Below are positions 19,239-36,968 of a DNA stretch of 64,000 nucleotides, in pieces. The stretch is taken from assembly GCA_027451365.1 (NCBI GenBank), contig DAIDJN010000056.1:98924-162923 (forward strand), in the 5' to 3' direction. The notes under the pieces were generated by a model. It did not search any database. It was not told where the DNA came from and saw only the letters and a list, made by a program, of their open reading frames with translations. Position 1 is the stretch's first letter. Every line of letters begins with the position of its first letter. The stretch comes from Phycisphaerales bacterium. Its GTDB lineage: Bacteria; Planctomycetota; Phycisphaerae; WQYP01. The translations under genes were made by a program, and so were the position numbers.

Positions 19239-19357
19239 CCGGCGAATTTCCAGCGCATGGTATGCATCATTTCCCCACGGAAAAGGCCGTCGGGGTGAAC
19301 TTCCCGTTTAAGAGGATGCCGCGGGAAAAAGAGCCTTCCGAAGCGACAGGAGTCCGT

Positions 19358-20965
19358 ATGCGTCAATATCTGCGAAATCTGATGGTGTCGGCGGGGGCGA
19401 TGGCCCTGGGGCTGATTCTGACGGCGGGGAATTCCACCGCGGCGCACATCGCGCATGGTAAACTGCTTTTTAAATTGAATTTCACTGGGCCGATTGGCTC
19501 TCTTCCATCGCAAAAGATATGGAAATATGACACGGGCTGGGACCCCAATTGCGGCACGTATTACATAGACTCGGCTAAAACCATGGGAGTGGTGGCTGAC
19601 TCGCACGCCCAGAGCGGCAAGGCTCTGGCGATTCGCGTGGTGCCTTATCCCGGCAAGCCGGGCGCATTCCTTTCGGCGCGCATTACCACGTTTGCCAATC
19701 CTGCGTATCATGTCAAATATGGATATATAGAGGCACGTATAAAGGTTCCTGGCGGACCTGATGGTGCCGGTTCAGGATCGTGGCCGGCATTCTGGCTTCT
19801 GGGGACGAATTTTCCAAAAGTCGGCTGGCCCCAGTGCGGCGAGATTGACACCATGGAAAGCGCCGGCAATCGGCCCGGCACCGTTACCGGCACCATACAC
19901 GGTCCGGGCACAGGTGCTGGCGGCCCTTATTCCCTGCCCGCGGGAAAGGAATTCTGGCAGCATTACCATACATTCGCCGTTCAGTGGAGTCCGCTGGAAA
20001 TTGAGTTCCTTTGCGATGGTCATGTGTATGCCCTTTTTACCCCGGCGGACCAGAACAAGAATAGCTGGGTGTTTGACCATCCATTTTATATTATTCTCAA
20101 TGTGGCCGAGGGCGGGGCGTATGGCGGCGCTCCCAATGGAAATGCCATTTATCCGCAGACCATGCTCGTGGACTGGATTAAGGCCTATGCGTGGAAACTT
20201 GCTGTTCCCACCGCTGTTCACGCACGCGCGATTGGCAATGGTGGCGTTCATGTGTCGTGGATGGATACGGCCTTTGATGAAAGCGGTTTTGTTCTGCAGC
20301 GATCGACATCGCGCGATTTTAGCGAGGGTGTTCATACTCGGAAGCTTTCCGCATTGGCGGCCGGTTATACCGATTCGGCGCTGCCAGCAGATCAGAAGTG
20401 TTACTATCGAATAGCCGCAGTGGAAGGAAAGACACGGTCCGCATGGTCCGCAGTCGCGGCCGTCAATCCAGTTGCGGGAACTCCGTCAGCGGGCGGTCAG
20501 GTTTCCGATCATCCGGTTCTGGCTATTAATTGCGGCGGCCCGGCGGGAGATGGATTTATAGCGGATCGTTATCACTCAAAATCGGCGCACGACGCGCCCG
20601 ATAACCATCCGATTGCGCTGGCGCATGGCCTGCCAGCCATTCCGCAAAGCGTGTATCAATCCAATCGGTACGGTGGCTTTACGTACAGACTGCCCCACTT
20701 AAAGCCGCACGGCCATTATGTTCTGGAACTGAATTTTTCGGAAGGCTATTGGCGGGCACCACGTAAGCGGCTTTTTGCGGTATTCGCCAATGGCGTCCCG
20801 ATTTTAAATGACTTTGACATTTATGCCGCCGCCGGCGGACGGTTCAAGGCGGTGAATCGCAGGTTTCATCTGCGAGCCAATGCGCAGGGGCAGATTGATT
20901 TGCGGTTTGTATCGCAGCGCGACAATGCCCAAGTCAATGGCATTGAAGTGTATGCGGTTAAATAG
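19358..20965 (+). CDS. GH16 beta-glucanase (laminarinase-type), fibronectin type III domain, malectin-like domain
   Basis: ATG at 19358 with an AGGAG RBS; signal peptide. GH16 catalytic motif GEIDTME (E-x-D-x-x-E) with WPAFWLLG nearby; central FN3-like segment; C-terminal malectin/di-glucose-binding-like domain (...YRLPHLKPHGHYVLELNFSE...NGIEVYAVK). Confidence 0.85.
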   Translation: MRQYLRNLMVSAGAMALGLILTAGNSTAAHIAHGKLLFKLNFTGPIGSLPSQKIWKYDTGWDPNCGTYYIDSAKTMGVVADSHAQSGKALAIRVVPYPGKPGAFLSARITTFANPAYHVKYGYIEARIKVPGGPDGAGSGSWPAFWLLGTNFPKVGWPQCGEIDTMESAGNRPGTVTGTIHGPGTGAGGPYSLPAGKEFWQHYHTFAVQWSPLEIEFLCDGHVYALFTPADQNKNSWVFDHPFYIILNVAEGGAYGGAPNGNAIYPQTMLVDWIKAYAWKLAVPTAVHARAIGNGGVHVSWMDTAFDESGFVLQRSTSRDFSEGVHTRKLSALAAGYTDSALPADQKCYYRIAAVEGKTRSAWSAVAAVNPVAGTPSAGGQVSDHPVLAINCGGPAGDGFIADRYHSKSAHDAPDNHPIALAHGLPAIPQSVYQSNRYGGFTYRLPHLKPHGHYVLELNFSEGYWRAPRKRLFAVFANGVPILNDFDIYAAAGGRFKAVNRRFHLRANAQGQIDLRFVSQRDNAQVNGIEVYAVK

Positions 20966-21220
20966 GGCGGATTGCCAGCTTCCTTCAGGTGCTATCCGAC
21001 CACTCGCCAAAGACCCCCTGAGCGTTGTATGGAATGTCGGCGCGGTCATTGTCGCGGCAAAGCAATCGGCTTTTGGGAAAGCTTGCCCGCCGGAATTCCT
21101 TCCATTTAATCAATTTGTGCGCTATGTTTTTCATTTCCGATCAAAACCGGCGCACCCTTGAATCTTGTGAATTTATTATGCGGTTGACGCCTGATAACGG
21201 GCGCGTTACACCTTTTGTTT

Positions 21221-22441
21221 ATGGAAAATATACATGAAAAGCTGGCGGTCTGGCGAACCGGGCGGCATCTGCCCGGTCGCTGGAGCGGGATTGGCATTGC
21301 GGTCGTTTTGGTTCTTTTAATCGGTTGTCCGCGGCGCGGCGGAGCGGCTGTTCCCCAGAAAATCGCTGTGATACCAGCCGCAAAGACTGTGGCCAATATA
21401 TCCGCCAGACGGGCCGAGTGGTGGAAAATCTGGCACGAAAAGATGATGATCGATTATGAATTGCAGCGGCGCTTGGGGCCGGGGCAGCGGGCGCTGTTGT
21501 CCGCGGCATCCAGGCGGCGGGTGGCCGCCAAGGTCATTCCCATGACCTGGCGAGCTTACAAACTGAATCTTCAATTACTTAAGATCAGTTCTTCCCAACA
21601 GCGTCCGTTTGTACACGTTCTTCTACGGGAAGACCTGCTGATATTGAGCGTGCTTGGTGATGCAAAGGCCAAGGCGATATTGAACATAAATGCCGCATCG
21701 GCCAATCCTGCCAAAGCACAGGACGGGCGCGTGGTGCTTCTAATTTATCAATTGTATCTGGCCTGGCATCATGAAAAGAAGGTCTTCGCGATTTTGCGGG
21801 AATTTGAAAAGCTCGCCCTTGCACATCCAACAAGCGTTGATATCAGCACTACTCTTTCTTCCATTACCAACAGCCCGCCGCGATTGCCCACGCAGGCTGA
21901 AAGGCGATTTGTGCGGCACGTGCTTTTGAATGTGATGCCGAAAACTCTCGCGGCCCGCATGCTGGCGCAAGACAATGCCTCGCGGCAAAAGCTGCTGGCC
22001 ATGGTGGGTAAGCCTTTGAATCTGCAAACCCGATCGTTGACGGGTGACCGGTTGAATACCGCCCGCTGGCGCGGCAGAGTGCTGGTCGTATGCGTCTGGT
22101 TTCGCCTGAACCAGCTTGTCGCGATGCAGCCTTTTTACGATAAATTTCATGCCCGCGGATTGTCCATGGTCGGCATTCCAATGTGGCAGAATTTTGAACA
22201 GATCGGGCAGACCATGATGACCCATCCGCATATAACCTGGCTTCAGACGCGCATTATCCATAAGGTCGCAGGTGACGGACTGCTATTCGGTGCGATTCCA
22301 TTTGTGAATGTCGGTAATCGTTGGCAGGACTATGAAATAATTTGCGACAGGCGAGGCATCGTACGATTTGTGGTTTTCCACGGCAGCGGCGGTATGCCTG
22401 CGGAGGACATAAAGAAACTGCTGGCGGACAGGCCGCATTGA
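21221..22441 (+). CDS. membrane-anchored protein with a C-terminal TlpA-like thioredoxin fold lacking the CXXC motif
   Basis: N-terminal TM IGIAVVLVLLIGC; the C-terminal 120 aa have redoxin topology (GRVLVVCVWF-RLNQ...IPFVNVGNRWQD...) but WCxxC is replaced by VWFRLNQ. The track start at 21215 is TTG; ATG at 21221. Confidence 0.5.
   Translation: MENIHEKLAVWRTGRHLPGRWSGIGIAVVLVLLIGCPRRGGAAVPQKIAVIPAAKTVANISARRAEWWKIWHEKMMIDYELQRRLGPGQRALLSAASRRRVAAKVIPMTWRAYKLNLQLLKISSSQQRPFVHVLLREDLLILSVLGDAKAKAILNINAASANPAKAQDGRVVLLIYQLYLAWHHEKKVFAILREFEKLALAHPTSVDISTTLSSITNSPPRLPTQAERRFVRHVLLNVMPKTLAARMLAQDNASRQKLLAMVGKPLNLQTRSLTGDRLNTARWRGRVLVVCVWFRLNQLVAMQPFYDKFHARGLSMVGIPMWQNFEQIGQTMMTHPHITWLQTRIIHKVAGDGLLFGAIPFVNVGNRWQDYEIICDRRGIVRFVVFHGSGGMPAEDIKKLLADRPH
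22040..22441 (+). repeat. direct repeat copy 1 (3' end of the TlpA-like gene)
   Basis: About 400 bp with roughly 85-90% nucleotide identity (by eye) to 33500..33904, same orientation, 11.4 kb apart. Confidence 0.8.
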
Positions 22442-22877
22442 TACGGCATCCCTGACTTTCGGGACCATCTGGACAGGGTCCGGCATAGCGCAGTCCGATA
22501 TCACTGCCGCCTTTTGCAATTTTTTAAATAGCGTTGTGGGCCTTGGTGGATTCAACTGATTCCATCACATCCACAGTAGATTGACTTGGGGCCGAATGTC
22601 CCGCGCGTCATGCGCCATGCCGCAACTTGCCAACGTTCAGTATTGTTCCATTTTATACCACGACCGATAAATCCGGCTTCTTCCTTGGATTTGCCCAGCG
22701 GTTGACCGGCTCAGGCGGATAAATTCACGTCCGATTTTGGGCCGACCGATAAACAGGACGGGTGGTATCTCGTTATAGAGACTGCCTGATACGTATCGCT
22801 GGTGCGCCGCCCTGGCGGATTCAGTGTCAAAGCCGAATGAAAGGGGATAATTCGGCTGGCCAAACAGGAGCAGTTGC

Positions 22878-23825
22878 ATGCCGACGAAATTAAAATCTGC
22901 GGAATGGCGCACACCCTGGCGCAATACTTGGGGCGTTGCCCCTTCTATGCGTGCCTTGGGCCCGCGGCGTGTTCAGGGTCGTGGTTTTACCCTGGTGGAA
23001 CTTCTTGTGGTGATTTCCATCATTGCTCTTTTAATAGCCATCCTCTTACCTGCGCTGGCCAGAGCCAAAGCATTGGCGTATAGCATTCAATGTTCCGCGA
23101 ATCTTCGTGCCATCGGTCAGATCAATGCCGAGTATGTGAGCACATACAGCGGCAGTCTGCCTTTTGGCATGGATACCTACGGTCCCGGACCGAATGAATA
23201 TGATTCACTGCTTTTCAGTTATTATATTGATGTTCAACCGAACATCTTCTGGAACAACAGGGGGTCCAATAAGGACTGGGAACAAAAATATGTCGCGTTC
23301 TTCTGGTGTCCATCTCGCGTATTGGCCATGCAGAATCCTTGGGGCATGAATTATGCGTGCAACCCAAATTATTTTGTTGCCAACAAAGGCGGAAATACCA
23401 CTTTTCGCGATTCCGATGTGGCTGACCCGGCTGAAGCCGCAGGCGTAGGAGATGCAAATCAGGCCTTCGGAGATGGTGGATCCTGGATGACGTTTGACTG
23501 GCAGCAGACCGGAGCAGCGTCACCATATATTAATGATCAGAGCTATCTTGTTCCGCCGAATGGCCTTTCAGGCGGTGATACGGCCAATGTGGATGCGGGA
23601 CCCAATTTTGTATTTGGCACGGGGCTTCGTTATCGCCACAATCTATTTGCGGCGAACAGTGGGAATGGAAATGTCGTGTTCCTGGACGATCACGTGGAAA
23701 GTCTGAATTTTAATGACAACACCCCAGGCGCGCCCGTAGGAGCCGCAGGTACGATCGGTAATGATTTAACATTAACTATTCAAAACATTTACAATCCATT
23801 GTTGCCTGCCAGCACGCAACAGTGA
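22878..23825 (+). CDS. DUF1559 (H-X9-DG) protein with prepilin-type N-terminal domain (paralog of 15890..16654)
   Basis: AGGAG RBS before ATG at 22878; GFTLVELLVVISIIALLIAILLPAL; C-terminal NVVFLDDHVESL H-X9-DG motif; shared FFWCPSR and NPWG(L/M)NYA motifs. Confidence 0.85.
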   Translation: MPTKLKSAEWRTPWRNTWGVAPSMRALGPRRVQGRGFTLVELLVVISIIALLIAILLPALARAKALAYSIQCSANLRAIGQINAEYVSTYSGSLPFGMDTYGPGPNEYDSLLFSYYIDVQPNIFWNNRGSNKDWEQKYVAFFWCPSRVLAMQNPWGMNYACNPNYFVANKGGNTTFRDSDVADPAEAAGVGDANQAFGDGGSWMTFDWQQTGAASPYINDQSYLVPPNGLSGGDTANVDAGPNFVFGTGLRYRHNLFAANSGNGNVVFLDDHVESLNFNDNTPGAPVGAAGTIGNDLTLTIQNIYNPLLPASTQQ

Positions 23826-23887
23826 TCTGACACCACATCGTTCCGCCCGGTGAAGTGAATGGTTAAATGGCTCATTGGCAACGCCGC

Positions 23888-24550
23888 TTATTTGCGCACA
23901 ATAAACTTGCCGTACATGCCGGCCTTGGCGTGGGCGGGCATTTGACACAGGTAATAATACGTGCCGGCCTTCTTGCAGGTGAATGTAACGGTGGAAACCC
24001 AATAGCTGGATTGTTTTATATTGCTTCCAGTGCGCGGCATCATCAGCGGAATGCTGGTCAGTTGCCCGGGCAGCGGAAGCGTCATGACGCCGCCGTAAGG
24101 TGGGGCCTTTGTACCAATGGCGATTCCGTGAATCATGCCCGGGCCGTAGTCCATATTCACCAGAGTAAGTCGGATCACCGAGCCTGCCGGCACGCTTATC
24201 GTTGGGTCCACCAGCTTGTGGACTTCATACGTGGTATCCGGAAAGCCTGGTTCCACGGCCACAAAAACCAGGTGTATTTTCCGGCCCGTGAACGTGACCA
24301 ATTTTGCGGACTTATTCGCCGTTCCGGTGGTATCGTCATGCTTCACCAGCGGAGCGACCTTGGCCCAAGGTAACAAAACCTGTCCTTCGGTCGGCTTGAC
24401 CTTCATATGCATGCCCGGCATGTTGCCCATTCCGGGCATGTTTCCCATGCCGCCCCGCACCTGCGATGGCGCGGCGAATTGAATGCCGACAGCGAACAAC
24501 AGGGCGGCGAGGCCAGCGGATAAGATTGCGGGTTGAGAAATGCGCTTCAT
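23888..24550 (-). CDS. cupredoxin-like type-1 (blue) copper protein with N-terminal Met-rich motif
   Basis: Start refined to ATG at 24550 (GGAG RBS); signal peptide; MGNMPGMGNMPGMHMK Met-rich repeat; C-terminal copper ligands CQMPAHAKAGMYGKF (Cys-x3-His-x4-Met) with an upstream His. Confidence 0.8.
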   Translation of the reverse strand: MKRISQPAILSAGLAALLFAVGIQFAAPSQVRGGMGNMPGMGNMPGMHMKVKPTEGQVLLPWAKVAPLVKHDDTTGTANKSAKLVTFTGRKIHLVFVAVEPGFPDTTYEVHKLVDPTISVPAGSVIRLTLVNMDYGPGMIHGIAIGTKAPPYGGVMTLPLPGQLTSIPLMMPRTGSNIKQSSYWVSTVTFTCKKAGTYYYLCQMPAHAKAGMYGKFIVRK

Positions 24551-24614
24551 GACATGACTCCAGTACGGGTTCTTACGACAAACCACCACAATGTTGCAGA
24601 AAAATCCCATGCAT

Positions 24615-26075
24615 TTAATACTCCGGTTTCGCGGCCGGGCTTGACGGGCCGGGAATGGGAACCGGCGTCTGGCCGGGATTGATACCGTCGCGCTGCATGT
24701 TGGCGGCGGTGGCGTTTAATGCCAGTTCACCGGGTGGATTCTGATACCAGCCGGGATCATTGTAGGTTGTAATGCCATCCCGAACTTTAAGAATCGTGAA
24801 CATGCCGCCCATATCAATCAGGCCGTGCGGGCCTTTTCCACCCAGCATGGGCGTGCTGTTGGGTATGCTGGGCATACCCATGGTCATGCCCATGCCATTC
24901 TGCCCCATGGTCATGTAATCGGGCAGAAGCTTTCGCATTTTATGGCCCAGGGTTCCCGGTTTTACACCAATCATGTTGGGGAAGTTATGGCCCATCTGCG
25001 TCATGGCATGGTGTGTCATGTGGCAGTGCATGGCCCAGTCCCCCGGATTACTGGCCACAAATTCCACCGTTCGCGTGGTACCTACCGGTACCAGAACGGT
25101 GGTGGCCGGCTGCCAGGCGCTGCGCGGATATTCGCCGCCATCACTGGCCACAATTTGAAACGAATAGTTATGAAGATGAATTGGGTGATGATCCATGGGG
25201 CCAAGATTTCCCAGGCGGATGCGTACCCGCTGGCCAGTGCGAACCACCAGCGGATGCGTCGCCGGAAAGGATTTTGCGTTCATGGTAAATACGTTAAAAT
25301 CCGTCATTTCCAGCGGGTTCGGCCGGTAAGCGCCCGGGTCAATCCGCCATTCATGAAGCATGATTGCGAAATCCCGGTCTACCGCACGGTCCGGGGCCGG
25401 CGTGCGCGGATGAATAATAAACAGCCCCGTCATGCCCAGGCCGATCTGCGTCATTTCATCAAAATGGGAATGAAACATTTTGGTGCCATGGTCCACCAGA
25501 TTAAATTCATACATATATGTTTCACCCGGCGGAATGGCCTTTTGTGTCAGCCCGGCCATGCCGTCCATGCCGCAGGGCACATACACGCCGTGCCAGTGTG
25601 TGGTGGTGGCCTCCGGAAGCCGATTGGTGACATAGATTCGCACCCGTTCACCCTGCACCGCTTCAAGTACCGGATGAATCATGCCATTGTATCCCCAGCA
25701 TAAAGCCTTAAGCCCGGGGCAGAATTCATTCCACACTTCCATGGCCACCAGATGAAACACTTTCACACCATTTACAATTTTCCATGGAATGGTGCCGGAA
25801 TTGGGGGATTCCACTGGTATATAATCCCGGCCCGGCAGGCCGGGCGCAAGAGGCCTGGCGTAGAGAGCTTTACGCAAATCTGCTGTGTCCGGCAGGCCGG
25901 TGGAATGATCCGGCGAGTCGGCGTGTGCCGCTTCAACTGCCGCGCCAGCGGTCTGGCCACCGGTGCCCGAACCCAGCATGGCTGCGGCGGCACCAGCCGC
26001 CACTCCGGATGCCAGCAGATTGCGACGGGATAATCCAGAACGTATGGAAGTTGTGTGGGACATATCTTGTGGCAT
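24615..26075 (-). CDS. multicopper oxidase (CopA/PcoA-like), Tat-exported
   Basis: Tat signal SRRNLLASGVAAGAAAAM; copper-centre motifs HWHGVYV, HPIHLHNYSF, HCHMTHHAMTQMGH; Met-rich segments MGMTMGMPSIPNSTPMLG; AAGGAAA RBS. Confidence 0.9.
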   Translation of the reverse strand: MPQDMSHTTSIRSGLSRRNLLASGVAAGAAAAMLGSGTGGQTAGAAVEAAHADSPDHSTGLPDTADLRKALYARPLAPGLPGRDYIPVESPNSGTIPWKIVNGVKVFHLVAMEVWNEFCPGLKALCWGYNGMIHPVLEAVQGERVRIYVTNRLPEATTTHWHGVYVPCGMDGMAGLTQKAIPPGETYMYEFNLVDHGTKMFHSHFDEMTQIGLGMTGLFIIHPRTPAPDRAVDRDFAIMLHEWRIDPGAYRPNPLEMTDFNVFTMNAKSFPATHPLVVRTGQRVRIRLGNLGPMDHHPIHLHNYSFQIVASDGGEYPRSAWQPATTVLVPVGTTRTVEFVASNPGDWAMHCHMTHHAMTQMGHNFPNMIGVKPGTLGHKMRKLLPDYMTMGQNGMGMTMGMPSIPNSTPMLGGKGPHGLIDMGGMFTILKVRDGITTYNDPGWYQNPPGELALNATAANMQRDGINPGQTPVPIPGPSSPAAKPEY

Positions 26076-26086
26076 ATACGGTTTCC

Positions 26087-27583
26087 TTATTCACGAGATT
26101 TGGTTGTCTTGGTTCCGATCGGTTTGTGTGTCTGGGGCAATTTAAGGATTTGCGCGGCTGCCGGAAGCCGCCCGCCAATGGCGCTTTCCAATGCTGCTCT
26201 GGCCATCCAATACTGGCCGGCCGCCTGCACGGCCTTGTGCTCTGCCCGAATTTCATTTTGCCGGGCCAGCAGCAATGGATATGGCCCGGCGTACATGCCG
26301 TTGTAGGACAGTTGGGTTTCTTGCAATATTCTCTGGCGCAGCGGCACCAGAATATTGCGGAAAAAAATGGCGGTATGACGGGCCGCGACCAATTTCACCC
26401 AACGGCGGCGCACGGTTGCCCGCACGTTGACAGCTATTGCGTCAATTTTTCTGCAATCAGCCAGAAATCTGGCCCGCGCGCGGGCAATGGCCGGCTGGCC
26501 CTGATTAAATATGGGCAGCGGAATGGAAATGGCCGGCCCTAGGGTGCCTGCCACATCGGGATCGCGCACATAATTTAAGCCTACTGTTGCGCCAGACATG
26601 ACGCCGGCGGCACCCGCCATTTTCAGCGTGCTCGCCGCCGCAAGCAGTCGGAAACGGGCTGCGCGAATCGCCAGACTTTGCCGAATAGCCAATGATTCCA
26701 GTCCGGCCAACTTCGGATCAACCATGGGCACCGGTGGCAGTTGCGGCTTTATCCGCCAGGAGTCCCGCGGTCCCCACAGGCCCATCAGTGCCGTTAGCGT
26801 CTGGCGATCTTCCAGCATTCTGGCGCCGGCATTGGCGTATGCGAGCCGGGCCTCCTGGTATACATCCAGCTTCTGGTCGTAGGGAAGTTGTGCAATATTC
26901 CCGGCCTCCCGCAGATGGCGGGCAAATATCGCGCTGTCGTGCGCAGCGGCCCTGACCTGCTTATCCAATTGCCACAGTTGCTCGTCCATCTGTACCTGAT
27001 AAAAGGCGGCTTTTACTTTGGCCGCCAGTTGCATGACATCCGCGGCCACGTCAGCTTTTTGTGCGGCAAATGCCGCTTTGGCAATGCGCTTCCGCGCGCT
27101 TAGGAACAGCAGGTCAAGAAATGTCTGGTCTACACTTGCGTCCCACCCGTGGTAAGGTCGCGCCGGAAACCGAAGGTCGAAAGAAAACACCGGATTTTTC
27201 AACAGGCCTGCCTGTACCAGATTTGCTTCGGAAACGCCCAGCTTCTGGTAATCCGCCTGCAATGCCGGACTGTTGAGCAGGGCGATTTGCACCGCCGCCC
27301 CCGCCGAGAGGTTGTGGGACAACAGCCCGGTGACCGCGGCACGAATCTTCTTATCCGCCCGGGCACTGTCATTCCAGATAACCTGCCGACCCGTGCGATG
27401 GCGTATCGCGCTGGCCAGTGAATGAAATCCCGGTCGCGGTGGCACCGTTGCGCAGCCCGCCAGCAGCAGCCCGCTGATAGCCATGGCTGCCTGCGTGATG
27501 CGCCGCCCGTGCCGGCGAGGCCATTGCCTGGCGGCTTTGCATATCGTGGTCAGTAAAAATGACGAATTGGATTGTGTTATCAC
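26087..27583 (-). CDS. outer membrane efflux protein (TolC/CusC-like OMF lipoprotein)
   Basis: GTG start overlapping the upstream stop (GTGA). Lipobox MAISGLLLAGC; two-repeat OEP architecture with long coiled-coil-like segments. Confidence 0.7.
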   Translation of the reverse strand: MITQSNSSFLLTTICKAARQWPRRHGRRITQAAMAISGLLLAGCATVPPRPGFHSLASAIRHRTGRQVIWNDSARADKKIRAAVTGLLSHNLSAGAAVQIALLNSPALQADYQKLGVSEANLVQAGLLKNPVFSFDLRFPARPYHGWDASVDQTFLDLLFLSARKRIAKAAFAAQKADVAADVMQLAAKVKAAFYQVQMDEQLWQLDKQVRAAAHDSAIFARHLREAGNIAQLPYDQKLDVYQEARLAYANAGARMLEDRQTLTALMGLWGPRDSWRIKPQLPPVPMVDPKLAGLESLAIRQSLAIRAARFRLLAAASTLKMAGAAGVMSGATVGLNYVRDPDVAGTLGPAISIPLPIFNQGQPAIARARARFLADCRKIDAIAVNVRATVRRRWVKLVAARHTAIFFRNILVPLRQRILQETQLSYNGMYAGPYPLLLARQNEIRAEHKAVQAAGQYWMARAALESAIGGRLPAAAQILKLPQTHKPIGTKTTKSRE

Positions 27584-27939
27584 TGAGGGCCTCCCTTCAT
27601 GTTCATGCCCGGCATGGAACCGATATTCATTTGGGGCGTGGATGTGATGTTTCCGGGCTGTCCGGCTTTTGTCGGTACGCCAGAAGTCTTGCCGGCCGCG
27701 GACGGAGGTTTTTGTAAAATAGCCACCGGTGGCTCAGCAATTTGCTTATTGGGATGTGCCACATTCAGGAAACCCGTCGCCGGAATTGCCGGACCGGGCG
27801 TGGCCTGCGGATCAGCCGGACCTGCCAAAGCCGCTCTTTCCGTATTGCTTAAGTGGTTGTCGCCTCCCGATTGACTACAGCCTGTCACCGGCAGACATGC
27901 GGCGCACAAAAGTGCTGGAATAATATACCGTGATTGCAT
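27580..27939 (-). CDS. small Met-rich periplasmic lipoprotein (putative Cu(I)-binding)
   Basis: ATG at 27939 with a GAGG RBS (the track start at 28008 is TTG); lipobox LLCAACLPVTGC; C-terminal MNIGSMPGMNMKG Met-rich motif; its stop overlaps the OMF start. Confidence 0.55.
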   Translation of the reverse strand: MQSRYIIPALLCAACLPVTGCSQSGGDNHLSNTERAALAGPADPQATPGPAIPATGFLNVAHPNKQIAEPPVAILQKPPSAAGKTSGVPTKAGQPGNITSTPQMNIGSMPGMNMKGGPQ

Positions 27940-28445
27940 ACAGCCTCGCGGAAAAACTGCGGAAAAAAATGCGTTACAGTCGCCGGCGCGAACCGGCGGA
28001 AAAAACAAAGTGTGCGCCCCGAATGTATCAGATAATCAGTGCGCAGTGCTGCGACAACAGCGATTGCCGCTGGCGAGCGGTCAATGGAAGCGCGGGAGTC
28101 GCCCCACGCGCTTGTGAAATGGCAGAAATGTTTTTCAAGCGGTCATGGGTCAGCCACGTCAAAAGACTCGGCGCGGTCGGAGGGGCAATTTCAATTTTGC
28201 GGATGGACAGTGTGCGCGCAACCAGTTGATGGCAATCACAGTCTGGAACGCCGCTGCGCCATGCCGGGATTGACCCGACAGTTGAATTGCCAGCGATTAT
28301 TTCATGGTTGGAACGGGCGACCGAAGCGTGGCAGCGGCAGCGATTGAACCCAAGTCCAAACGACAGGCACAATGCCGTGATCAGAATGTATTTAAGCGCA
28401 GCGCACATGAAGAAAGTGTAGAAACGGCGCTGTGGATTGTCAAAT

Positions 28446-29456
28446 TTATCGCGGCGCATATTCATTGCGAAGACAGCGAACCTTACCCTGTTTATTTATC
28501 ACCAGATGCGCTATCTGGATATAAGACCGGCGGCCGAATTGGGTGAAATAAAACAGCACGCATTGTCCCTTTTGCGTGATGACCGCCGGATGGTGTCCTG
28601 GTGCGTTATCCAGCGTTCGCCTTCCGGTGGCGCCAGCCAGCACGGTGGCGTTGTATACCCAGTGTCCGGTGCCGGATTTTGATCGGTAAACTCGCAGGCC
28701 ACGACCCGCGTCGGTAATCAGCCAGTAGGCATGATGCCATCGCCATACAAAGGGCGCTTCCTGACTGGGCCACGCCACAACCTGCCGGTCATCATGCCAG
28801 TGATTCAGATGATCTGATTCCGCCATCCAGATGTGTGATCCATGATGTTCGTCCTTGTACCACATGTACCATTTTCCATGAATTTTCCACAATGTGGGGT
28901 CAATACAACGGGCCGAAGACAGCGGCACTGTGGAAATAAATTTCCAGTCGATGCCGTTTTTGCTGGCAAAATGTTCAATCGTGGCACGGCCCGTCCAGCT
29001 GGTAAAAATGCCGTGCACTTTCACCACAAACATTTGCAGTACTCCCTTTTGCCAGGCAAAACAGGGGGCCCACCACGTCACGTGCGCTTTCATCGGATCG
29101 CCGAGTCCATGCGGACCCTGACATATGCCCCGATACTTCCAGTGAATACCGTCCGGCGATGTCGCAATTCCAATGGCCGTGCCGTGGCACCACAATACGC
29201 CTGGCGGATGGCGCATGGCCGCCCGCCGCTGTGTGTAATACATCCACCATTGCCCTTTGTGATTTGTCCCTTTGTTTGGCATCCATACCACAAATGGGTC
29301 CGCCGCCCCATGCCAGACCGGATCGTCAAACAGCGGTGCCGGCGCTTTGGAAACCTGTATCCAGGCGGGAGGCGCCGCCGGTGCTTCCGCCGGGATCAGA
29401 CCTGTCAGCAGAACCATTAACAGTGCGGCGGCCGCATAACTCACGGTGGTCTGCAT
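28446..29456 (-). CDS. secreted five-bladed beta-propeller glycoside hydrolase (GH43/GH32-like)
   Basis: AAGGAG RBS; signal peptide; DPFVVW near the N-terminus (candidate catalytic Asp) and W-rich blade repeats typical of the GH43 fold. The family assignment is tentative. Confidence 0.5.
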   Translation of the reverse strand: MQTTVSYAAAALLMVLLTGLIPAEAPAAPPAWIQVSKAPAPLFDDPVWHGAADPFVVWMPNKGTNHKGQWWMYYTQRRAAMRHPPGVLWCHGTAIGIATSPDGIHWKYRGICQGPHGLGDPMKAHVTWWAPCFAWQKGVLQMFVVKVHGIFTSWTGRATIEHFASKNGIDWKFISTVPLSSARCIDPTLWKIHGKWYMWYKDEHHGSHIWMAESDHLNHWHDDRQVVAWPSQEAPFVWRWHHAYWLITDAGRGLRVYRSKSGTGHWVYNATVLAGATGRRTLDNAPGHHPAVITQKGQCVLFYFTQFGRRSYIQIAHLVINKQGKVRCLRNEYAPR

Positions 29457-29487
29457 GATGAATCTCCTTATAAAGCTGTCATGTCAT

Positions 29488-30330
29488 TTACCGCGCCGCC
29501 CGCACCGGTTCGCCATCCACGGCCACGATAGTGCCCGACTGTATCGGTATCAGGCCGCCAGCAGTTTGCAGCAGCAATGCGCCCGCGGCGGAAAGGCCGG
29601 CCCCGCGACCGGTTATGGTTTGCCCAGCCGCGGATAATGTTACCAGACGGTCTCGCAAATAATCATCGCGCAATATCTGCTGAATGGCATTGTCCACTGT
29701 CGCGGACCGCGGTTCGGTGGCCAAGTCCCGCCATATCGTCTGAATTTGGTCCAGCAATATCCGGGCCACTTCAGCAGTGTCATATATTTGCCGTGTGCAG
29801 GCGGCAAGACTGGTGGCAAAAGTGGCAATCTGCGATGGAAAATCCGCTGTTTTCGTATTTAAGTTCAGACCAATTCCGATAACCACCGCCTGTCGCCCGC
29901 CCGCGGATATGCCTTCACTTAATATCCCCGCCAGCTTTTTTCCGCCCAGTAAAATGTCGTTCGGCCAGCGAATTGTTACATCGCCGTGCGCCGCTCGGGC
30001 GTCCGGTAATCGCCGTATCGTGCGAATCACCGCAACGCCCGCAAGCAGGGGGGTTGCAGGCGTTTCCATTTCCGGTGCGCCGGCTATTACTGCGCTTAAA
30101 TACAGGCCGCCTTCCGGACTTTCCCATGCCCGCGCGTGCTGCCCGCGGCCATGCGTTTGCCGATGTGCGATATGCGCGGAAAAATGACCGCAAGCTGGTA
30201 TGTCGGGGCCTGCAGACACAATATCCCGTGCTTCGCACAGGGCTAAATTTTGTGTGGAATCCACAGTATCGTATTGGTGAATCCGCCACGGAATATCCGG
30301 GATATGCACAGGTGTTTCCATCCATTTCAC
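29488..30330 (-). CDS. birA: biotin--[acetyl-CoA-carboxylase] ligase
   Basis: BPL signature GRGQHARAWESPEGGLYLSAV and a C-terminal BirA domain. The start is either GTG at 30330 or ATG at 30321. Confidence 0.85.
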   Translation of the reverse strand: MKWMETPVHIPDIPWRIHQYDTVDSTQNLALCEARDIVSAGPDIPACGHFSAHIAHRQTHGRGQHARAWESPEGGLYLSAVIAGAPEMETPATPLLAGVAVIRTIRRLPDARAAHGDVTIRWPNDILLGGKKLAGILSEGISAGGRQAVVIGIGLNLNTKTADFPSQIATFATSLAACTRQIYDTAEVARILLDQIQTIWRDLATEPRSATVDNAIQQILRDDYLRDRLVTLSAAGQTITGRGAGLSAAGALLLQTAGGLIPIQSGTIVAVDGEPVRAAR

Positions 30331-31208
30331 CGCTTGCGCTGGGCCGGTTGCCGGCCAACTGCCAGTAATTTTCGCAGAACGTCGACATCATGCTGGGCGG
30401 TTTGTCGGCGGTGATTGGTAAGCCGGGAGTCCAGCAGAATAAGTCCCTGGAAGTCAGAATCGTGTAATGCCCGCAAAACTGCCGCCGGTTCCATTTGTCC
30501 TTCACCCAGCGGGCAGGCCGCGACAGTGCGACCGATACGCTGCGCATCCGAGCAGACCCAGATAGCGATCTTGCCCGCAATGGCTCCAACGGCCTGGGAT
30601 ACGTCGTGGCCTGAAGCGATCAGCCGAAGCGAATCAATTCCGCCGCGCACACCGGGCGTGTTGGCGTGCGCCACCAGCCGGTTAATGGCCGCGGGGTTGC
30701 CGCCGCACAGGGCCAGAATCGTCCCTGTGCGATCCGCCAGTTCCGTCAGCACGGCCAGGGCTTGCAGGGTATCCGGATGCCAGCCTTCGGCCGGCACCGC
30801 TAAGGGGTCGGCAGCTTGCGAAGCGGGCCGGGGCGGCGGCTCGCCGATGTAAATGCTCACCAGCCGACAGCGAAAATCGTGAGCCAGCGCAATGGCGGAT
30901 TCGCCCCGCTGTACCAGCCGATCCAGTGATTGAACTGAAAAAAGACCATCCGCTCCAGCGCCGGTTCGCAGGCAGTCCAACGACAATTGCCTTGATTTCA
31001 GCGTATGCAGAAAATGCCGCCGCGCGGTGTGACCCATGTCCGGGCCCGAAAGTATCGGGTGGTCCGCTCGGATCGAAATGCCGGTTACTGCCAACGATGC
31101 GGCAAAATCAATTCCGGTGCGGATATCCGCATCCACAGCATCAATGGCTAAGCTTGCTGGCACCGGCTGCGTATCAGAAGATTGCGTCTGTTGAGTCAGG
31201 GTCGCCAT
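30327..31208 (-). CDS. putative sugar phosphate isomerase/epimerase (xylose-isomerase-like TIM barrel)
   Basis: Weak pattern resemblance only; 3' end overlaps birA by 4 nt. Confidence 0.35.
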   Translation of the reverse strand: MATLTQQTQSSDTQPVPASLAIDAVDADIRTGIDFAASLAVTGISIRADHPILSGPDMGHTARRHFLHTLKSRQLSLDCLRTGAGADGLFSVQSLDRLVQRGESAIALAHDFRCRLVSIYIGEPPPRPASQAADPLAVPAEGWHPDTLQALAVLTELADRTGTILALCGGNPAAINRLVAHANTPGVRGGIDSLRLIASGHDVSQAVGAIAGKIAIWVCSDAQRIGRTVAACPLGEGQMEPAAVLRALHDSDFQGLILLDSRLTNHRRQTAQHDVDVLRKLLAVGRQPAQRKR

Positions 31209-31437
31209 GAACTATTCTCCAGGCCGCTGCACCTGCCTATTGGCACGGTGTATTGCACGGCCTGTTGACTATTATGCGCGCTAACCAGTGCTTTGCCAGT
31301 ATATCCGCCCAGTTGAGCGTTCGCCGGCGCTGCGGTAGGCTCTAGCGCCAAAAGGCCGACGGTTCGGCCTCCGCGGAAAATAAAAATGCGTCATTCGGGG
31401 CGGCCCGTCCCGCCGACGCCGGGAACCGGTTTGAGCT

Positions 31438-32034
31438 ATGAAAAAGAATCGGCTGGAAGCGTTCTCTGATGGTGTCATCGCCATCATCATTACGATAATG
31501 GTCTTGGATTTGCGCATTCCGCACGGAACCGACGCCGCCGCTCTGGCACCCGTGGCACCCGTTTTGTTTAATTATGCCCTTAGCTTCGTCTTTGTTGGCA
31601 TTTATTGGAACAACCATCATCACCTTTTTCATGCCGTGCATGAAGTAAGCGGGGCAATCATGTGGGCCAATCTGCATCTGCTGTTCTGGCTTTCACTTAT
31701 TCCGTTTGTCACCGGCTGGATGGGGGAGAATAATTTTGCGACTTTGCCAACCGCGGTCTATGGGGTCGTGATGATGCTTTCCGCGATAGCCTACACAATT
31801 CTGCAACTGGCAATTATACGCTCACAAGGCACCCAATCGCTGCTGGCCGGTGCCATCGGACGTGATCGTAAAGGCAAATTTTCCATGGTGGCGTACGTAG
31901 CGGCAATCGGCCTGGCGTTTGTCAGTTCCTGGGTTTCAATTGCGATTTACGTTCTGGTCGCCCTTATCTGGTTAATTCCCGATACACGCATTGAATCCGC
32001 ACTGCAAAAAAGTCCGCAAAGGGAATCAGAATAA
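31438..32034 (+). CDS. TMEM175/DUF1211 family potassium channel-like membrane protein
   Basis: Hallmark N-terminal RLEAFSDGVIAIIITIMVLDL motif and the duplicated 6-TM pattern of the family. Confidence 0.85.
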   Translation: MKKNRLEAFSDGVIAIIITIMVLDLRIPHGTDAAALAPVAPVLFNYALSFVFVGIYWNNHHHLFHAVHEVSGAIMWANLHLLFWLSLIPFVTGWMGENNFATLPTAVYGVVMMLSAIAYTILQLAIIRSQGTQSLLAGAIGRDRKGKFSMVAYVAAIGLAFVSSWVSIAIYVLVALIWLIPDTRIESALQKSPQRESE

Positions 32035-32195
32035 TCCCGACGCGTCGGTTGGGCGGGACTGCCGCCGGCTTATAAACTTGATAAACTCTCCGATGTGTGC
32101 ATGATGTTTTCCATGAATCATCGCATTGCGGAAAGCCCGTTGGATGGTTGGGCGGGACTGCCGCCGACGGACGATGCCGCACAAGGAGATTTTGC

Positions 32196-33116
32196 ATGTT
32201 ATCCAGTTTTTCGCCGCCTGTATTGTCATTGGCGGTTCTGCCCCAGCCGGCTTTGCATTTAACGCTGCTTCAGGCCATCCTTCTGGGCCTTTTGCAGGGT
32301 TTTTCCGAACTCTTCCCGATCAGTTCCCTGGGGCATATCATTCTGATCAAGGCATTGCTGCACTGGCATTTTAATTCCCAGAATAAAAATTTCCTCTCGT
32401 TTGTGGTGGCGCTGCATCTGGCGACGGCCGCCGCTCTGCTGCTTTATTTCTGGAAGGAATGGAAAAAAGTAATTCTGGCATATCTGGGCAGTGCCAAACG
32501 CATGACGTTTGTTTACGACCAGGACAGCAAATTCGCGTGGTTGCTGGTTGCAGGCACGCTTGTGGTAGGACTGGTGGGGCTGGTGTTTCAGAAAAAGTTT
32601 CGGCTGTTTTTTGACAACCCCCATTACCTCTGGCTGGTTGCCGTGTTTCTGATTTTAAATGGCGGTGTCATGCTGGCGGGCGATATTCTCAAGCGGAAGG
32701 CGGAACGTCAGGCCAGGGAAACGCAGCAGAAAAAGGCCGAAGAGCTTTCCTTCAAGGCCGCCACACTGGTGGGGGCAAGTCAGACCTTGGCGCTGTTTCC
32801 AGGCATTTCCCGTTCCGGCGTGGCAATTGTGGGCGGCATTCTGGCTGGCCTAAGCTATGAAGAAGCCTGTCGTTTTGCTTTTATGCTGGCCACCCCGGTT
32901 ATTGCCGCTGCCGGATTGCTGAAACTTCCGGCGCTGTTCAAACCCGAAGCAAGGGATATTCTGCACCTGACTATTCCCGCAGCCATTGCCGCCGGTATTA
33001 CGGCGTATGTCAGTACGCGGTTCCTGATGAAATATTTTGAGACCCGGCGTTTGCTTCCATTCGCCATCTATTGCGTGGCGGCCGGGACTGTATCGCTGGT
33101 GATCCTGTATCATTGA
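32196..33116 (+). CDS. uppP: undecaprenyl-diphosphatase
   Basis: ATG at 32196 with an AAGGAG RBS (the track ORF starts upstream at 32097); LQAILLGLLQGFSELFPISSLGHIIL signature; PGISRSG motif. Confidence 0.9.
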   Translation: MLSSFSPPVLSLAVLPQPALHLTLLQAILLGLLQGFSELFPISSLGHIILIKALLHWHFNSQNKNFLSFVVALHLATAAALLLYFWKEWKKVILAYLGSAKRMTFVYDQDSKFAWLLVAGTLVVGLVGLVFQKKFRLFFDNPHYLWLVAVFLILNGGVMLAGDILKRKAERQARETQQKKAEELSFKAATLVGASQTLALFPGISRSGVAIVGGILAGLSYEEACRFAFMLATPVIAAAGLLKLPALFKPEARDILHLTIPAAIAAGITAYVSTRFLMKYFETRRLLPFAIYCVAAGTVSLVILYH

Positions 33117-33499
33117 TCGCCGGATGGGCAATCCTGCGGATTGTCCAGAACGCATTTCGACGCGTTCGGATATTTGGCTCAATCTGCGCCTGGTCAGAAT
33201 TGTTTCAGCGTTCTGATGATGACCAAATGCGCGTGTTTGCCGCCTTTTGGTGAATAGAAGACGCAACGTGATAATCTGTTGCAGGGCTGAGCGGGTAACG
33301 GGTTAATAAAGCAACGCAGGCAGTGCATTTTACAGCAAAGCCGTTGGTGGCCGCCAATCCGGACAATCTGACGGGGGCTCTGGCCGCGCGGATACCGGCA
33401 AACCGAATGGATTTGCCGGCAGCCCTTGGGGGGCTGGAATAACCAGAAGACTGCGGCGTTATTTCAATTGCCCTGAATTGGAAAAAGGCTTGAATACAG

Positions 33500-33904
33500 G
33501 GTCAGCGCAAGCGCGACGGCCACCACCCGCGGGCGGCCAGGGTGGTGGTTGTGTGGGTCTGGTTTTGCCTGAACCAGCTTGTTGCGATGCAGCCTTTTTA
33601 CAGCCAATTTCACACACGCGGTTTGGCCATGATCGGCGTTCCCATGTGGCAGAATTTTGAACAGATCGGGCAGGCCATGATGACCCGCCCGCATATAACC
33701 TGGCTTCAGACGCACATTATTCACAAGGTACCAGGTAATCGACTGTTGTTCGGTGCGATTCCATTTGTGAATGTCGGTAATCGTTGGCAGGACTATGAAA
33801 TAATTTGCGACAGGAAGCGCGTGGTGAGGGATGTGGTTATTCATGGCAGCGCCGGCATGCCGAAGGTGGAAATAACAAACCTGCTGGCGAATAAACGGCA
33901 TTGA
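33500..33904 (+). pseudogene. truncated copy (C-terminal about 120 codons only) of the TlpA-like gene 21221..22441; direct repeat copy 2
   Basis: 33542..33904 translates to a near-identical MVVVWVWFCLNQLVAMQPFY...IPFVNVGNRWQDYEIICDR... but lacks the N-terminal 280 codons, the TM segment and any plausible RBS. Confidence 0.7.
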
Positions 33905-34061
33905 GGCTGCGGTCTGAATTTCGTGGAACCTGGCCATGGTCCGGAATGGCACAGCCAGTCAGGATTCGCGTCATTCTATGATCTGCAGGCGGCTATTGGT
34001 CTAAGGTGTTGTGAAACAATTTGCTCGGATTTGTGTGGCGCAGACCTGCAAGTCTGGATAT

Positions 34062-34511
34062 CTACACTGCAATCTTTAACCAAATAGACGCGCCATAAAT
34101 AGCCGTGTAAAGCAGAATTGCAACTATAATCGTTCCAATGATCGTCATTAGAATGAACCAAATGGTTAGAATCGCGGCAACGCGATGCGTATCCGCGCGG
34201 ATTGCGGAAAGATTTTGCTGGATGGCGGCCAGGCGAATATTCTGCGAATCCGGCTGGCCGGTGGGCGTGTCCATGTTCACGATGCATTCGGAACAGAGGA
34301 TGGTTCCATTTTTCACGCGCACCGAAGACAGGGGCTTGATGGTTTGCTCGCACTGGGTGCAAATTGGCGACTGTTCTTTTTCAACGGCTTCCTGTTTCTT
34401 AAGGACCGCGACGCAGGAGTCGCAAAATGGCTGGCCATGCCAGTCTCCAGCTGCTTCAATTATTGGTGATTGACACGCGATGCATAGTTCTTCAACTGGT
34501 ACGTCGGGCAA
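34062..34511 (-). CDS. tail-anchored double zinc-ribbon protein
   Basis: TTG start with a GGGAG RBS; four CxxC pairs (CIAC...CDSC, CTQC...CSEC); C-terminal TM IWFILMTIIGTIIVAILLY. Confidence 0.45.
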   Translation of the reverse strand: MPDVPVEELCIACQSPIIEAAGDWHGQPFCDSCVAVLKKQEAVEKEQSPICTQCEQTIKPLSSVRVKNGTILCSECIVNMDTPTGQPDSQNIRLAAIQQNLSAIRADTHRVAAILTIWFILMTIIGTIIVAILLYTAIYGASIWLKIAV

Positions 34512-34895
34512 TTGCGAACTCCCAATTCAGTCGTTCAATCAATACCCGGAGCTACGGACCCCGGGGCAGGCAGGCGGGGATGGCCGCACAAATCCGTTGC
34601 GCTCCGGCCGGCTATCAGGCCCCGCATGATGGTCGCGTGGATGATAACGCAGCGGCTGAAATGCCACACTGTTCTTGCCACAAAAAAATGAGATTGCAAT
34701 GGCTTTCAATTCGCGCGTGACGCCGCAGCGCAGCTAACACCAGCGCGGCACCAGCCCGATATAATGCGCATCGCTATTCTATATATGGTGCTGACCGCCA
34801 CTCCATCGTCGCCGCAGCCAGAACCATCGGGCCAAAAACACAACATTTTAGTGCGGTTTTGTTAACGTGGCGAAAACCGGTCGGGTGAGGTTACA

Positions 34896-35669
34896 ATGCC
34901 ACACATGAATGGTTTTGGCAAAAATATCACCGGTTCAGTATCGTTGCTTGCGACACTTTTTCTGACGCTTGTTTCAACCGGGTGTCATACCAGCATTACG
35001 CCTCTTCAGCCCGCCCTTATCGGGCCACCTTGGGCTTTGCCGATGCCCAATCGCTCCCTGGCCGGCGAAAAGCAGCCATCGGCTAGTGCCTCGACTCTCC
35101 CCGCTGCGGCTGGCACGACCCGGAAAACAGCACAAGACATTGGGCCACGATCAGTCACTGACACCCGCTGGTTCGCCAATTTCCGCAATGGCAGCACCCG
35201 AACCGTTCGTATCGCCCGTTATCAGCATATCTGGCGACAAAGCGTGCACCTGATTCGCAATCTCGGTTACAACATAAACTGGCAGGACCACCGCCTGGGA
35301 ATTATCTCCACCGATCCGCGCCTGGCTCCGGAAGTCTTGCAGTGGTGGCGACCGGACACAACCAACGGTTCGTCGCTGATGGAAAGCACGTTGAACACCT
35401 ATCGGCGAATCATTCGTCTGGTCATTACGCAGGCAAAAACGCCTGAAAGCTACCATATTACGGTGGAGGTTCTTGTCCAGCGGCGGGAAAATCCGCAAGG
35501 GGATGTCGGCAATGTAGCCTTTGTCGGGCCATCCGCATTTGGATCTAATATTTTGCCGCTTAAGGCCAGTCATGCGGGCGTGCATACAGGCGGCCAATTC
35601 TGGATGACGATCGGCCGCGATACCCTCTTGGAAAAGAAAATTCTTAAGTTGCTTTTCAAGAAAATATAA
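34896..35669 (+). CDS. hypothetical lipoprotein
   Basis: GGTGAGG RBS; lipobox LVSTGC; no recognisable domain. Confidence 0.5.
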   Translation: MPHMNGFGKNITGSVSLLATLFLTLVSTGCHTSITPLQPALIGPPWALPMPNRSLAGEKQPSASASTLPAAAGTTRKTAQDIGPRSVTDTRWFANFRNGSTRTVRIARYQHIWRQSVHLIRNLGYNINWQDHRLGIISTDPRLAPEVLQWWRPDTTNGSSLMESTLNTYRRIIRLVITQAKTPESYHITVEVLVQRRENPQGDVGNVAFVGPSAFGSNILPLKASHAGVHTGGQFWMTIGRDTLLEKKILKLLFKKI

Positions 35670-35782
35670 TCCGCGGCGCGAAGATTCTATTCAACTAATA
35701 ATCCGGACTTTTCTTGACGACTGCGGACCGCTTGCCTTTTGTTTCATTGGCCGCCGAATGCAACGATTTTGTCCGGGTCATT

Positions 35783-36547
35783 TCAGTTGTGCACGTTTTC
35801 CGGAGGCCCGATCCGCACGTCCTGAACTCCGGTTGAATAATAGGCTGCGCAATGCGCGGGCAGACAAACACCGGGCAGCAGGTGTTCACATGTCATATCG
35901 GCTTGAACCGCCACCAGCGACCAAGGTGCATGGGTGATACGAAATCGCCGCAGCCGCCCTTTGTGCAAGGTAAATGCGGTGTAACGTTCCATCAGAAAAT
36001 CTTCTTCGCTCCCGGTTCGACTGGTACGGAAACTGTCTGTGGGTGTCCACCGGGCGCGGCAGTCCCACCGTGCGGCCCGGGTGTGCATGTGTCGCGAAGT
36101 CACGCCCTGCGCGGCATGGGTTCGATAATTCAGTGCCCCGAAGCAATAGGGTAAACCATAAAGCATCGGCCCCAGCAGAACCGCGATTCGGTTGGGAATC
36201 CATTCCCTCAGGAAATAAATGCCCCGGTCATTTCCGCAGCGGACGTAGGTTCGCACATTCAGGAAACCGTGGCGGGCCAGCGGAGCGCTGAAGAATTCAG
36301 TAAGGCGGCCACCGAATACCGGACGCAAACGGGCTTGGGTAAACGCCGCCAGTGTCACATAGGCGCAGCCGCCATACAGGTCCAATTCCAGCGGCACCGT
36401 CGGACGCAGCGCCTGGTGGGCCACGCGAAAATGGATAAACAACATGTTCAGCCAGTCCGCCAGAAAAGCCGGACGCAGTTGCGTATCAGGCCCGTCGTAT
36501 TGTGCTTCAGGTTTAGCCTTGTGTGGATGGTAAATGGTTGCGGTCAT
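35783..36547 (-). CDS. DUF2071 (YqjF-like) family protein
   Basis: FLNVRTYV and LYGLPY motifs recalled for DUF2071; co-oriented with the DCC and GbsR genes. Confidence 0.5.
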   Translation of the reverse strand: MTATIYHPHKAKPEAQYDGPDTQLRPAFLADWLNMLFIHFRVAHQALRPTVPLELDLYGGCAYVTLAAFTQARLRPVFGGRLTEFFSAPLARHGFLNVRTYVRCGNDRGIYFLREWIPNRIAVLLGPMLYGLPYCFGALNYRTHAAQGVTSRHMHTRAARWDCRARWTPTDSFRTSRTGSEEDFLMERYTAFTLHKGRLRRFRITHAPWSLVAVQADMTCEHLLPGVCLPAHCAAYYSTGVQDVRIGPPENVHN

Positions 36548-36581
36548 GGCACTGTCTCCTGTTATTCAGGCATTCAGATAT

Positions 36582-36968
36582 TTATTTCCTGTGCGATGCC
36601 GTCCGATCGCACGCTTTTTCCAGCCCGAGGATCGTGCTGATGCGATATCGATTTGCGGCCAGTATGTGATACGCGGCATTGGCCATGGAATAGATCGGCT
36701 TTCTGCGCATCAGCCACGCCAGGGGGCGAAGCCATCCAAAGCTGTCGGCCATGAACAGGTATACATCCAGGCCGATCAGCAGCCGCCCCGTTTCGGTGCA
36801 AAGAATAATTTGGGGTTCACTGGGTATGGTCCATCCGCTGGTGGAGCGAGCAAATTCCTTGCTGTCCCGGCCCGCGACGGTAAATCCCCGCACGAAAAGC
36901 CCAGGCGTTATTGCCGCGGCCCATCGGCTGCACAGTCCGCACTGGTCGTCATAAAATATCCTATGCAT
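36582..36968 (-). CDS. thiol-disulfide oxidoreductase DCC family protein (DUF393)
   Basis: N-terminal FYDDQCGLCSRW motif characteristic of DCC proteins. Confidence 0.8.
   Translation of the reverse strand: MHRIFYDDQCGLCSRWAAAITPGLFVRGFTVAGRDSKEFARSTSGWTIPSEPQIILCTETGRLLIGLDVYLFMADSFGWLRPLAWLMRRKPIYSMANAAYHILAANRYRISTILGLEKACDRTASHRK

Follow-up and report, generated by a model that had tools for sequence, protein, structure and literature searches.

We analysed a window of 64,000 nucleotides (nt) from a Phycisphaerales bacterium (contig DAIDJN010000056.1, positions 98,924-162,923 of the forward strand; all position numbers below are those of this window), in which the 3' end of a 406-codon gene for a TlpA-like protein (copy A) recurs in the same orientation 11.5 kb further on (copy B), with a copper module and the genes birA and uppP lying in between. 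The most probable explanation is that copy B is a gene remnant, that is, a truncated paralogous or allelic 3' copy of the 406-codon gene that sits in a hypervariable spot after uppP. The finding is mainly a correction and is largely ordinary; it also provides a clean natural case in which a truncated copy and its parent, 11.5 kb apart and 81% identical, have swapped a short conversion patch.

Extent and authenticity of the repeat

By blastn, the direct repeats span 22058-22493 (copy A) and 33522-33954 (copy B), both on the plus strand, with 81.2% identity over 437 columns (77 mismatches, four gap openings, E 1e-113 to 1e-115), and a self-comparison of the whole 64 kb revealed this pair as the sole long repeat in the window. 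Copy A comprises codons 280-406 (the last ~125) of the full-length gene, located at 21221-22441 on the plus strand, plus the 52 nt after its stop codon. The repeat has an ungapped core of 300 nt (22075-22374 and 33538-33837) that is 86% identical, its coding part of 120 codons shows 83% identity in DNA and 76% in protein, and the exact tracts common to both copies measure 25, 30 and 66 nt, the last being the longest. Boundary tests disclosed sharp ends of homology at both sides. Beyond the common stop codon the homology extended for 52 nt (local score 41, as compared with 13 +/- 2.5 for shuffled sequences, none of 500 reaching 41); upstream of 22058 and 33522 there was no significant similarity, with 414 of 500 shuffles scoring at least as high as the real pair, and a weak likeness upstream of B visible in a MAFFT alignment was rejected on that ground. 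A conserved hairpin sought in the common 52-nt 3' flank was weak (-7.4 kcal/mol, without a covariation term).

A previous reading made from the sequence alone (the sequence-only reading) had described same-orientation repeats of about 400 bp, the second of them a 3' fragment of the gene at 21221-22441, and both points are confirmed here. Its coordinates (22040-22441 and 33500-33904) fell in the right region but lay about 20 nt too far to the left and stopped 52 nt short at the 3' end, and the near-identical translation that it reported was overstated, given the protein identity of 76% over 120 codons. It had also proposed that an alignment identity below about 70%, or relatives with two full-length paralogs, would speak against a repeat; the alignment gave 81%, and no relative with a full-length paralog at the second position was found.

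The resemblance of the source to a metagenome-assembled genome (MAG), together with the many related contigs that break in this region, could suggest an assembly artefact, in which a collapsed or chimeric contig had placed one gene end twice. We regard this as extremely improbable, because the copies differ at 77 positions and because an independent MAG (GCA_027426355.1, contig DAICFM010000194.1, loci L001/L006) has A and B on a single contig, arranged as in the window. The breaks themselves are those expected of a true repeat. Contigs 100% identical to the window were interrupted within copy B, one of them starting at 33749 (L029), three at 33785 (L027, L028 and L030) and two ending at 33778 (L024 and L007), so that the short-read contigs break 30 nt inward from one or the other end of the 66-nt exact tract. 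This pattern is the behaviour of a de Bruijn assembler at a true repeat, at a k-mer size that we infer, and the short-read assemblies of the window's species thus break here because of the repeat.

Gene order between the copies

To compare synteny, we examined the gene surroundings of proteins homologous to UppP (BacA) or to the 406-aa protein. In a sister species (UppP 84% identical, L014-L023), the block from the cupredoxin-like gene to uppP was found in the same order, with an H+-PPase gene to its left and the ortholog of window 34896-35669 about 150 nt after uppP, and neither A nor B was present at the corresponding positions. A closer relative (~86% nt identity, flanks 83-88%; L004/L025 and L026) carried the full-length gene and the same interval through uppP, followed by a GH31 gene or a SWIM-like open reading frame (ORF) and no copy B. 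According to Pfam, the conserved block (23888-33116; collinear in L004/L025 and L014-L023) encodes a cupredoxin-like protein, a multicopper oxidase, an outer-membrane efflux protein, small ORFs, a GH43-like protein, BirA, a xylose-isomerase-like TIM barrel, TMEM175 and UppP. Since it is collinear in relatives without one or both copies, the block is, judged by its gene order, ancestral, and was not duplicated, inserted or mobilised by the repeats.

These results contradict the sequence-only reading, which had taken the repeats as the footprint of a segmental duplication or insertion of the 11-kb interval. Not only is the interval collinear in the sister species without either copy and in the relative without B, but the copies are old (synonymous divergence, dS, 0.46) and 81% identical, and no integrase, transposase or recombinase was detected by Pfam in 19262-37619 among 20 ORFs (the long ones taken as genes plus three around B). 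The same reading was correct in stating that this is not a simple genomic island. As to whether birA and uppP are normally adjacent to the full-length gene, as it had asked, the closer relative has that gene followed by the same interval through uppP, and the sister species has the block without the gene at this position. As the interval is ancestral, annotations should not present the repeats as termini of an island or amplicon with the copper module, birA and uppP as cargo.

A separate observation concerns the copper module. Although the flanks in the close relative L004 are 83-88% identical, DNA identity to it was only 68% for the outer-membrane efflux gene (in 26189-28349), as compared with 73% to the more distant sister L014; the small ORFs at 27296-28349 aligned to neither of them. 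The sequence pattern suggests that part of the copper module (26189-28349) was replaced by recombination in one lineage.

The variable site 3' of uppP

Copy B lies within a strain- and species-variable insert that extends from the uppP stop codon to a conserved 257-codon gene (33117-34895) and measures ~150 nt in the sister species. Haplotype comparison showed that all haplotypes part 1 nt past the uppP stop. Copy B was present in L006, L007, L010 and L024 and absent after uppP from L008, L009, L011, L013, L025, L026 and L014-L023; four of the latter (L008, L009, L011 and L013) are same-species contigs with a 100% identical UppP protein, and held Rhs core fragments in place of B. The 3' end of uppP emerges as a recombination hotspot in this lineage, very close relatives having at least four different contents there, orphan Rhs cassettes included. 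Four that were distinguished after uppP are the window type, a type that departs from it at 34005, the Rhs type and the L012 junction. The GC content of the variable insert (50-55%) was unremarkable.

The Rhs-bearing haplotype (L009:3432-5627, also L008, L011 and L013) contained two promoter-less RHS repeat-associated core fragments (TIGR03696, 62 and 60 bits for a cut-off of 32.5), each with a different C-terminal tip, with a 52-aa hydrophobic ORF between them and no full-length rhs upstream. By these features, the content of the L009 type is an orphan array of Rhs C-terminal and immunity-like modules.

Divergence and gene conversion

Over the 120 codons, dS between A and B was 0.46, as compared with 0.31-0.57 among the three full-length alleles (window, L004 and L005; dN/dS 0.19-0.23). 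Copy B was at a dS of 0.40-0.53 from the alleles of the other species, and window A was closer to L004A than to B. Since the A-B value falls within the range of between-species alleles, the age of B matches that of the species group. The unrooted quartet ((winA,L004A),(winB,L005A)) was supported by 14 parsimony-informative sites, versus 7 and 2 for the other two arrangements.

The identity of B to the alleles was patchy. Its nt 1-120 were 92-95% identical to L005A and its nt 207-273 were 100% identical to window A, while nt 273-320 showed 66-72% identity to every allele in a segment where the alleles are 83-96% identical to each other. The 66-nt exact tract, located at 22286-22351 in A and, according to an exact-run search, at 33749-33814 in B (both plus strand; the short-read contigs break here), was the longest exact run, its 100% identity comparing with 66-90% in other segments. 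Five of the seven sites that unite window A and B against L004 and L005 cluster within 22 nt of this tract (22318-22339), where both copies read CGT TGG CAG and L004 and L005 read CAG TGG CAT. The simplest reading of these sites is that the state arose once and was then copied between A and B, in either direction, as a gene-conversion patch of at most 66 nt. Recombination between the copies, as envisaged in the sequence-only reading, is thus upheld in the form of this patch; products of excision or amplification were not seen, without read mapping.

Origin of copy B

We favour a gene remnant as the explanation of copy B. Most likely, it would derive from a divergent functional allele, whether an old duplicate or DNA of a relative, and would have been truncated by illegitimate recombination at 33522 and 33954. 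Later, as shown by the site pattern, at least one short stretch (66 nt) passed between it and copy A by gene conversion. The two copies share exact tracts of 25, 30 and 66 nt, which would allow rare exchange of the RecA type, the minimal homology lengths for RecA in Escherichia coli being such that 25-66 nt are enough for rare homologous recombination. Crossing-over between A and B would delete birA and uppP, so that the deletion products would probably be counter-selected and conversion alone would be seen; amplification by unequal exchange between the copies is conceivable. The 11 kb from A to B would then be an ancestral block that merely lies between the parent gene and the variable spot.

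Copy B holds an intact frame of 120 codons (33542-33904, plus strand) with a GTG start and a stop position common with A. Upstream of this frame there are in-frame stops at about 33440 and 33491, and B lacks one nt of A immediately before the GTG; dN/dS between A and B over the 120 codons was 0.28. Several observations on this frame speak against a remnant. The branch leading to B accumulated 10 synonymous and 13 nonsynonymous changes (omega ~0.36, P = 0.016 versus neutrality); the 363 coding nt have no indels and an intact frame, whereas all four gap openings of the A/B alignment fall outside the frame, within ~70 nt of flanking homologous sequence; and between two strains there is one difference in these 363 nt versus six in the 405 nt upstream. 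An intact frame, a low omega and few strain differences would suit a functional small ORF equally well. In addition, public data contain three full-length alleles only, and, the quartet being unrooted, an early in-place duplicate is not separable from a piece of a foreign, L005-like allele.

These signals are what would be expected if copy B were a functional stand-alone gene (33542-33904) for a small cytoplasmic thioredoxin-fold protein under selection, in other words an ordinary diverged paralog, and it is also consistent with this possibility that the start of the frame coincides, by alignment, with the first core strand of a thioredoxin fold. Nevertheless, we consider it unlikely. The frame has no ATG and, unlike the parent protein, no signal or anchor; a promoter and terminator scan around copy B yielded no more sites than shuffled sequences; and the gene callers in three assemblies picked an antisense ORF instead. 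Right after uppP, four contigs of the same species have Rhs fragments and not B, and the L004 species is also without B there. Moreover, the B-specific changes cluster at nt 273-320 and include a Phe-to-Asp replacement in a predicted strand, nonsynonymous singletons number 13 in B versus six in L005A, and a word-indexed homologue search found no homologue of 120-aa length. Copy B is probably not expressed as a useful protein, as far as these sequence features tell. With fair confidence, we prefer to ascribe its coding signals to a fragment that was for most of its history part of a functional gene of full length, the truncation being fairly recent.

The geometry of the repeats suggests yet another origin, namely a tandem duplication of 22058-33521 that made the joint 33521/33522 and the second unit of which was later lost save for its first 436 nt, the remaining repeats still being able to drive excision or amplification of the copper/birA/uppP interval. 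Indeed, B starts exactly where a second unit would be expected to start and in direct orientation, the exact tracts of 25, 30 and 66 nt are there, and conversion between the copies has happened. This account appears quite unlikely. Copy B is no nearer to A (dS 0.46) than to the alleles of other species (0.40-0.53), and window A is nearer to L004A; since B is not closest to A, the duplication would have to be older than the divergence of the window's species from that of L004, where B is absent. So old a promoter-less fragment should be decayed, yet omega is ~0.36 and coding indels are absent. In addition, the window contains no second copy of any other stretch of the interval, and a deletion would take out birA and uppP.

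Copy B might alternatively act as a silent cassette, i.e. as a donor without a promoter, from which gene conversion would remodel the C-terminal domain of the parent protein, after the manner of pilS/pilE or of orphan polymorphic-toxin C-terminal modules. It is a promoter-less partial copy with homology past the stop codon, shares a conversion tract with A, and occupies a locus that in other strains holds orphan Rhs C-terminal cassettes. This role seems very improbable, considering that there is a single cassette in 64 kb, 11.5 kb and about ten genes away from the expression locus, that one conversion event is detectable, that no recombinase or flanking inverted repeats were found, and that A alleles of the same species are 99% identical, so that rapid variation is not seen. 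Equally speculative, and hardly more probable, is the wider idea that the site 3' of uppP is a general store of promoter-less C-terminal cassettes (Rhs tips and the TlpA-like C-domain) that recombine with distant full-length genes, with B as a working donor that diversifies an exported redox-dead protein.

Comparison with known systems

Copy B resembles bacterial gene remnants, that is, 3' pseudogene copies homogenised with their parent, in its truncation, in the sharp illegitimate boundaries and the absence of the upstream part of the gene, in its location in non-essential variable intergenic DNA, and in a patchy identity with an exact conversion tract. It differs from them in that it has an intact frame and statistics of purifying selection, and is as old as the species group and not a product of recent decay. 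Like the orphan C-terminal cassettes of Rhs and contact-dependent inhibition (CDI) systems, it represents the 3' part of a longer gene, without a promoter, in a strain-variable locus, and other strains hold Rhs core fragments (TIGR03696) at its very site, the L009 haplotype showing the Rhs feature. Unlike such cassettes, however, B has no Rhs/YD motif (no NCBIfam or Pfam match) and no co-oriented immunity-like ORF, the next ORF being convergent; its homology to the parent runs through its full length and is not limited to a 5' handle; and 11.5 kb separate it from its full-length counterpart.

With silent-cassette systems the A/B pair has exchange in common (the 66-nt tract with its five clustered states), but there is one cassette in 64 kb and the A alleles are 99% identical. 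With amplicons flanked by direct repeats (e.g. rrn- or IS-flanked, IS standing for insertion sequence) it shares the arrangement of two direct repeats around metal-resistance-like cargo, but the repeats are 81% identical with at most 66 nt of exact identity, and the cargo is ancestral and contains birA and uppP. Finally, the C-domain in the repeat is alike, by remote homology, to the periplasmic thiol:disulfide oxidoreductases of the TlpA/ResA type (Redoxin PF08534 / AhpC-TSA PF00578), from which it differs by the deletion of WCxPC, in both copies and the three alleles, and by the lack of a direct match in Pfam, NCBIfam or PDB.

The parent gene

The product of the 406-codon gene has an N-terminal hydrophobic anchor or signal with a cysteine (LLIGC), a helical middle and a C-terminal Redoxin/TlpA-like domain without CXXC. 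Neither this protein nor the 120-aa product of the B frame gave a direct match in Pfam (E up to 10), NCBIfam or PDB, by single sequence or by profile, and the close homologues of the 406-aa protein formed three clusters among 5.8 billion. A profile search with its family retrieved 292 remote homologues of ~370 aa. Nine of the ten that were scanned passed the Pfam cut-offs for AhpC-TSA, Redoxin and Thioredoxin_8 in the C-terminal third, two of the nine being short Redoxin-only proteins matched by the C-domain alone (e.g. P0245, E 9e-8, positions 266-403). The exception was the closest one, P0131, which gave a sub-threshold AhpC-TSA match and whose genomic context was uninformative. The label TlpA-like, first applied to the gene in the sequence-only reading, is therefore valid by remote homology only, as the direct Pfam and PDB searches were negative.

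In the alignment, both copies and all three full-length alleles had a 5-residue gap at the WCxPC of the relatives, and the active-site region read VWFRLNQL in copy A and VWFCLNQL in copy B. Since WCxPC is deleted, the C-domain of the parent is predicted to be redox-dead and thus unable to act as a thiol oxidoreductase. The N-terminal hydrophobic stretch ends in a conserved Cys, and the lipobox is not conserved in P0002 or P0003; the sequence suggests a parent protein that is exported or membrane-anchored. An AlphaFold2 model based on a 5-sequence alignment reached a mean predicted local distance difference test score (pLDDT) of 41, with values below 50 across the C-domain, a quality too low to judge the fold by. 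By sequence comparison, then, the parent gene belongs to a small lineage-specific family whose members, though TlpA-like, no longer have the catalytic CXXC.

The parent gene was 81% identical in DNA to its L004 counterpart, slightly under the 83-88% of the flanks, and the possibility that it is hypervariable between strains was rejected on these figures. The third full-length allele (L005, 77% protein identity) is on a 1.8-kb contig, the flanks of which (1-353 and 1690-1823) match nothing in the window, homology to the window running from 48 nt before the start codon to about 50 nt after the stop. As these flanks are unlike the window, the gene lies there in a different genomic context. Scans of genome contigs and metagenome contigs produced no further alleles, so that three full-length ones are on record in public data.

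Other features of the region

Downstream of copy B, a 149-codon ORF (34062-34511, minus strand) is convergent with it and, according to its translation, combines two paired CxxC motifs with a hydrophobic segment at the C-terminus. It was found in the window-type haplotype only, was called as a gene in three Logan contigs, and gave a sub-threshold LIM-like match alone in Pfam. Two MAG contigs that carry copy B are 99.2% identical to the window as far as 34005, beyond which they depart from it to the contig end (L006:11811-11946 and L010:5125-5246). The new ORF that follows, MAKRKKAVEPLPTIWRVNDELWAII, may resemble the N-termini of IS-family transposases; it had no match in Pfam.

A 2.3-kb contig from another sample (L012, junction at 2007-2320) follows the window to 33280 and then continues with the reverse complement of 34297-34142, with a 6-nt microhomology (TCTGTT) at the junction. 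The contig may stem from an inversion, or some other rearrangement, of DNA that takes in copy B, or it may be a chimeric read; its second junction was not found. A site-specific invertase switch was rejected as the explanation, the junction having no inverted repeats and 6 nt of microhomology only.

Between the parent gene and the conserved block lies a gene (22878-23825, plus strand) whose product bears a methylation motif of the prepilin type at its N-terminus and, by Pfam, weakly matches DUF1559; the gene is present in L004 and absent at this place in L014. It contains one copy (22986-23026) of a 41-nt direct repeat, the other being at 15905-15945, with 93% identity. In both places the repeat spans the region of the prepilin-type methylation motif at the N-terminus of a gene of the DUF1559/N_methyl kind, and hence reflects conservation between paralogs and not a mobile repeat. 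Another direct repeat, of 72-79% identity, links 18196-18297 with 18899-19000, 703 nt apart, and pairs the end of a 608-codon ORF with the next ORF, of 216 codons; these segments are probably tandem paralogous domains.

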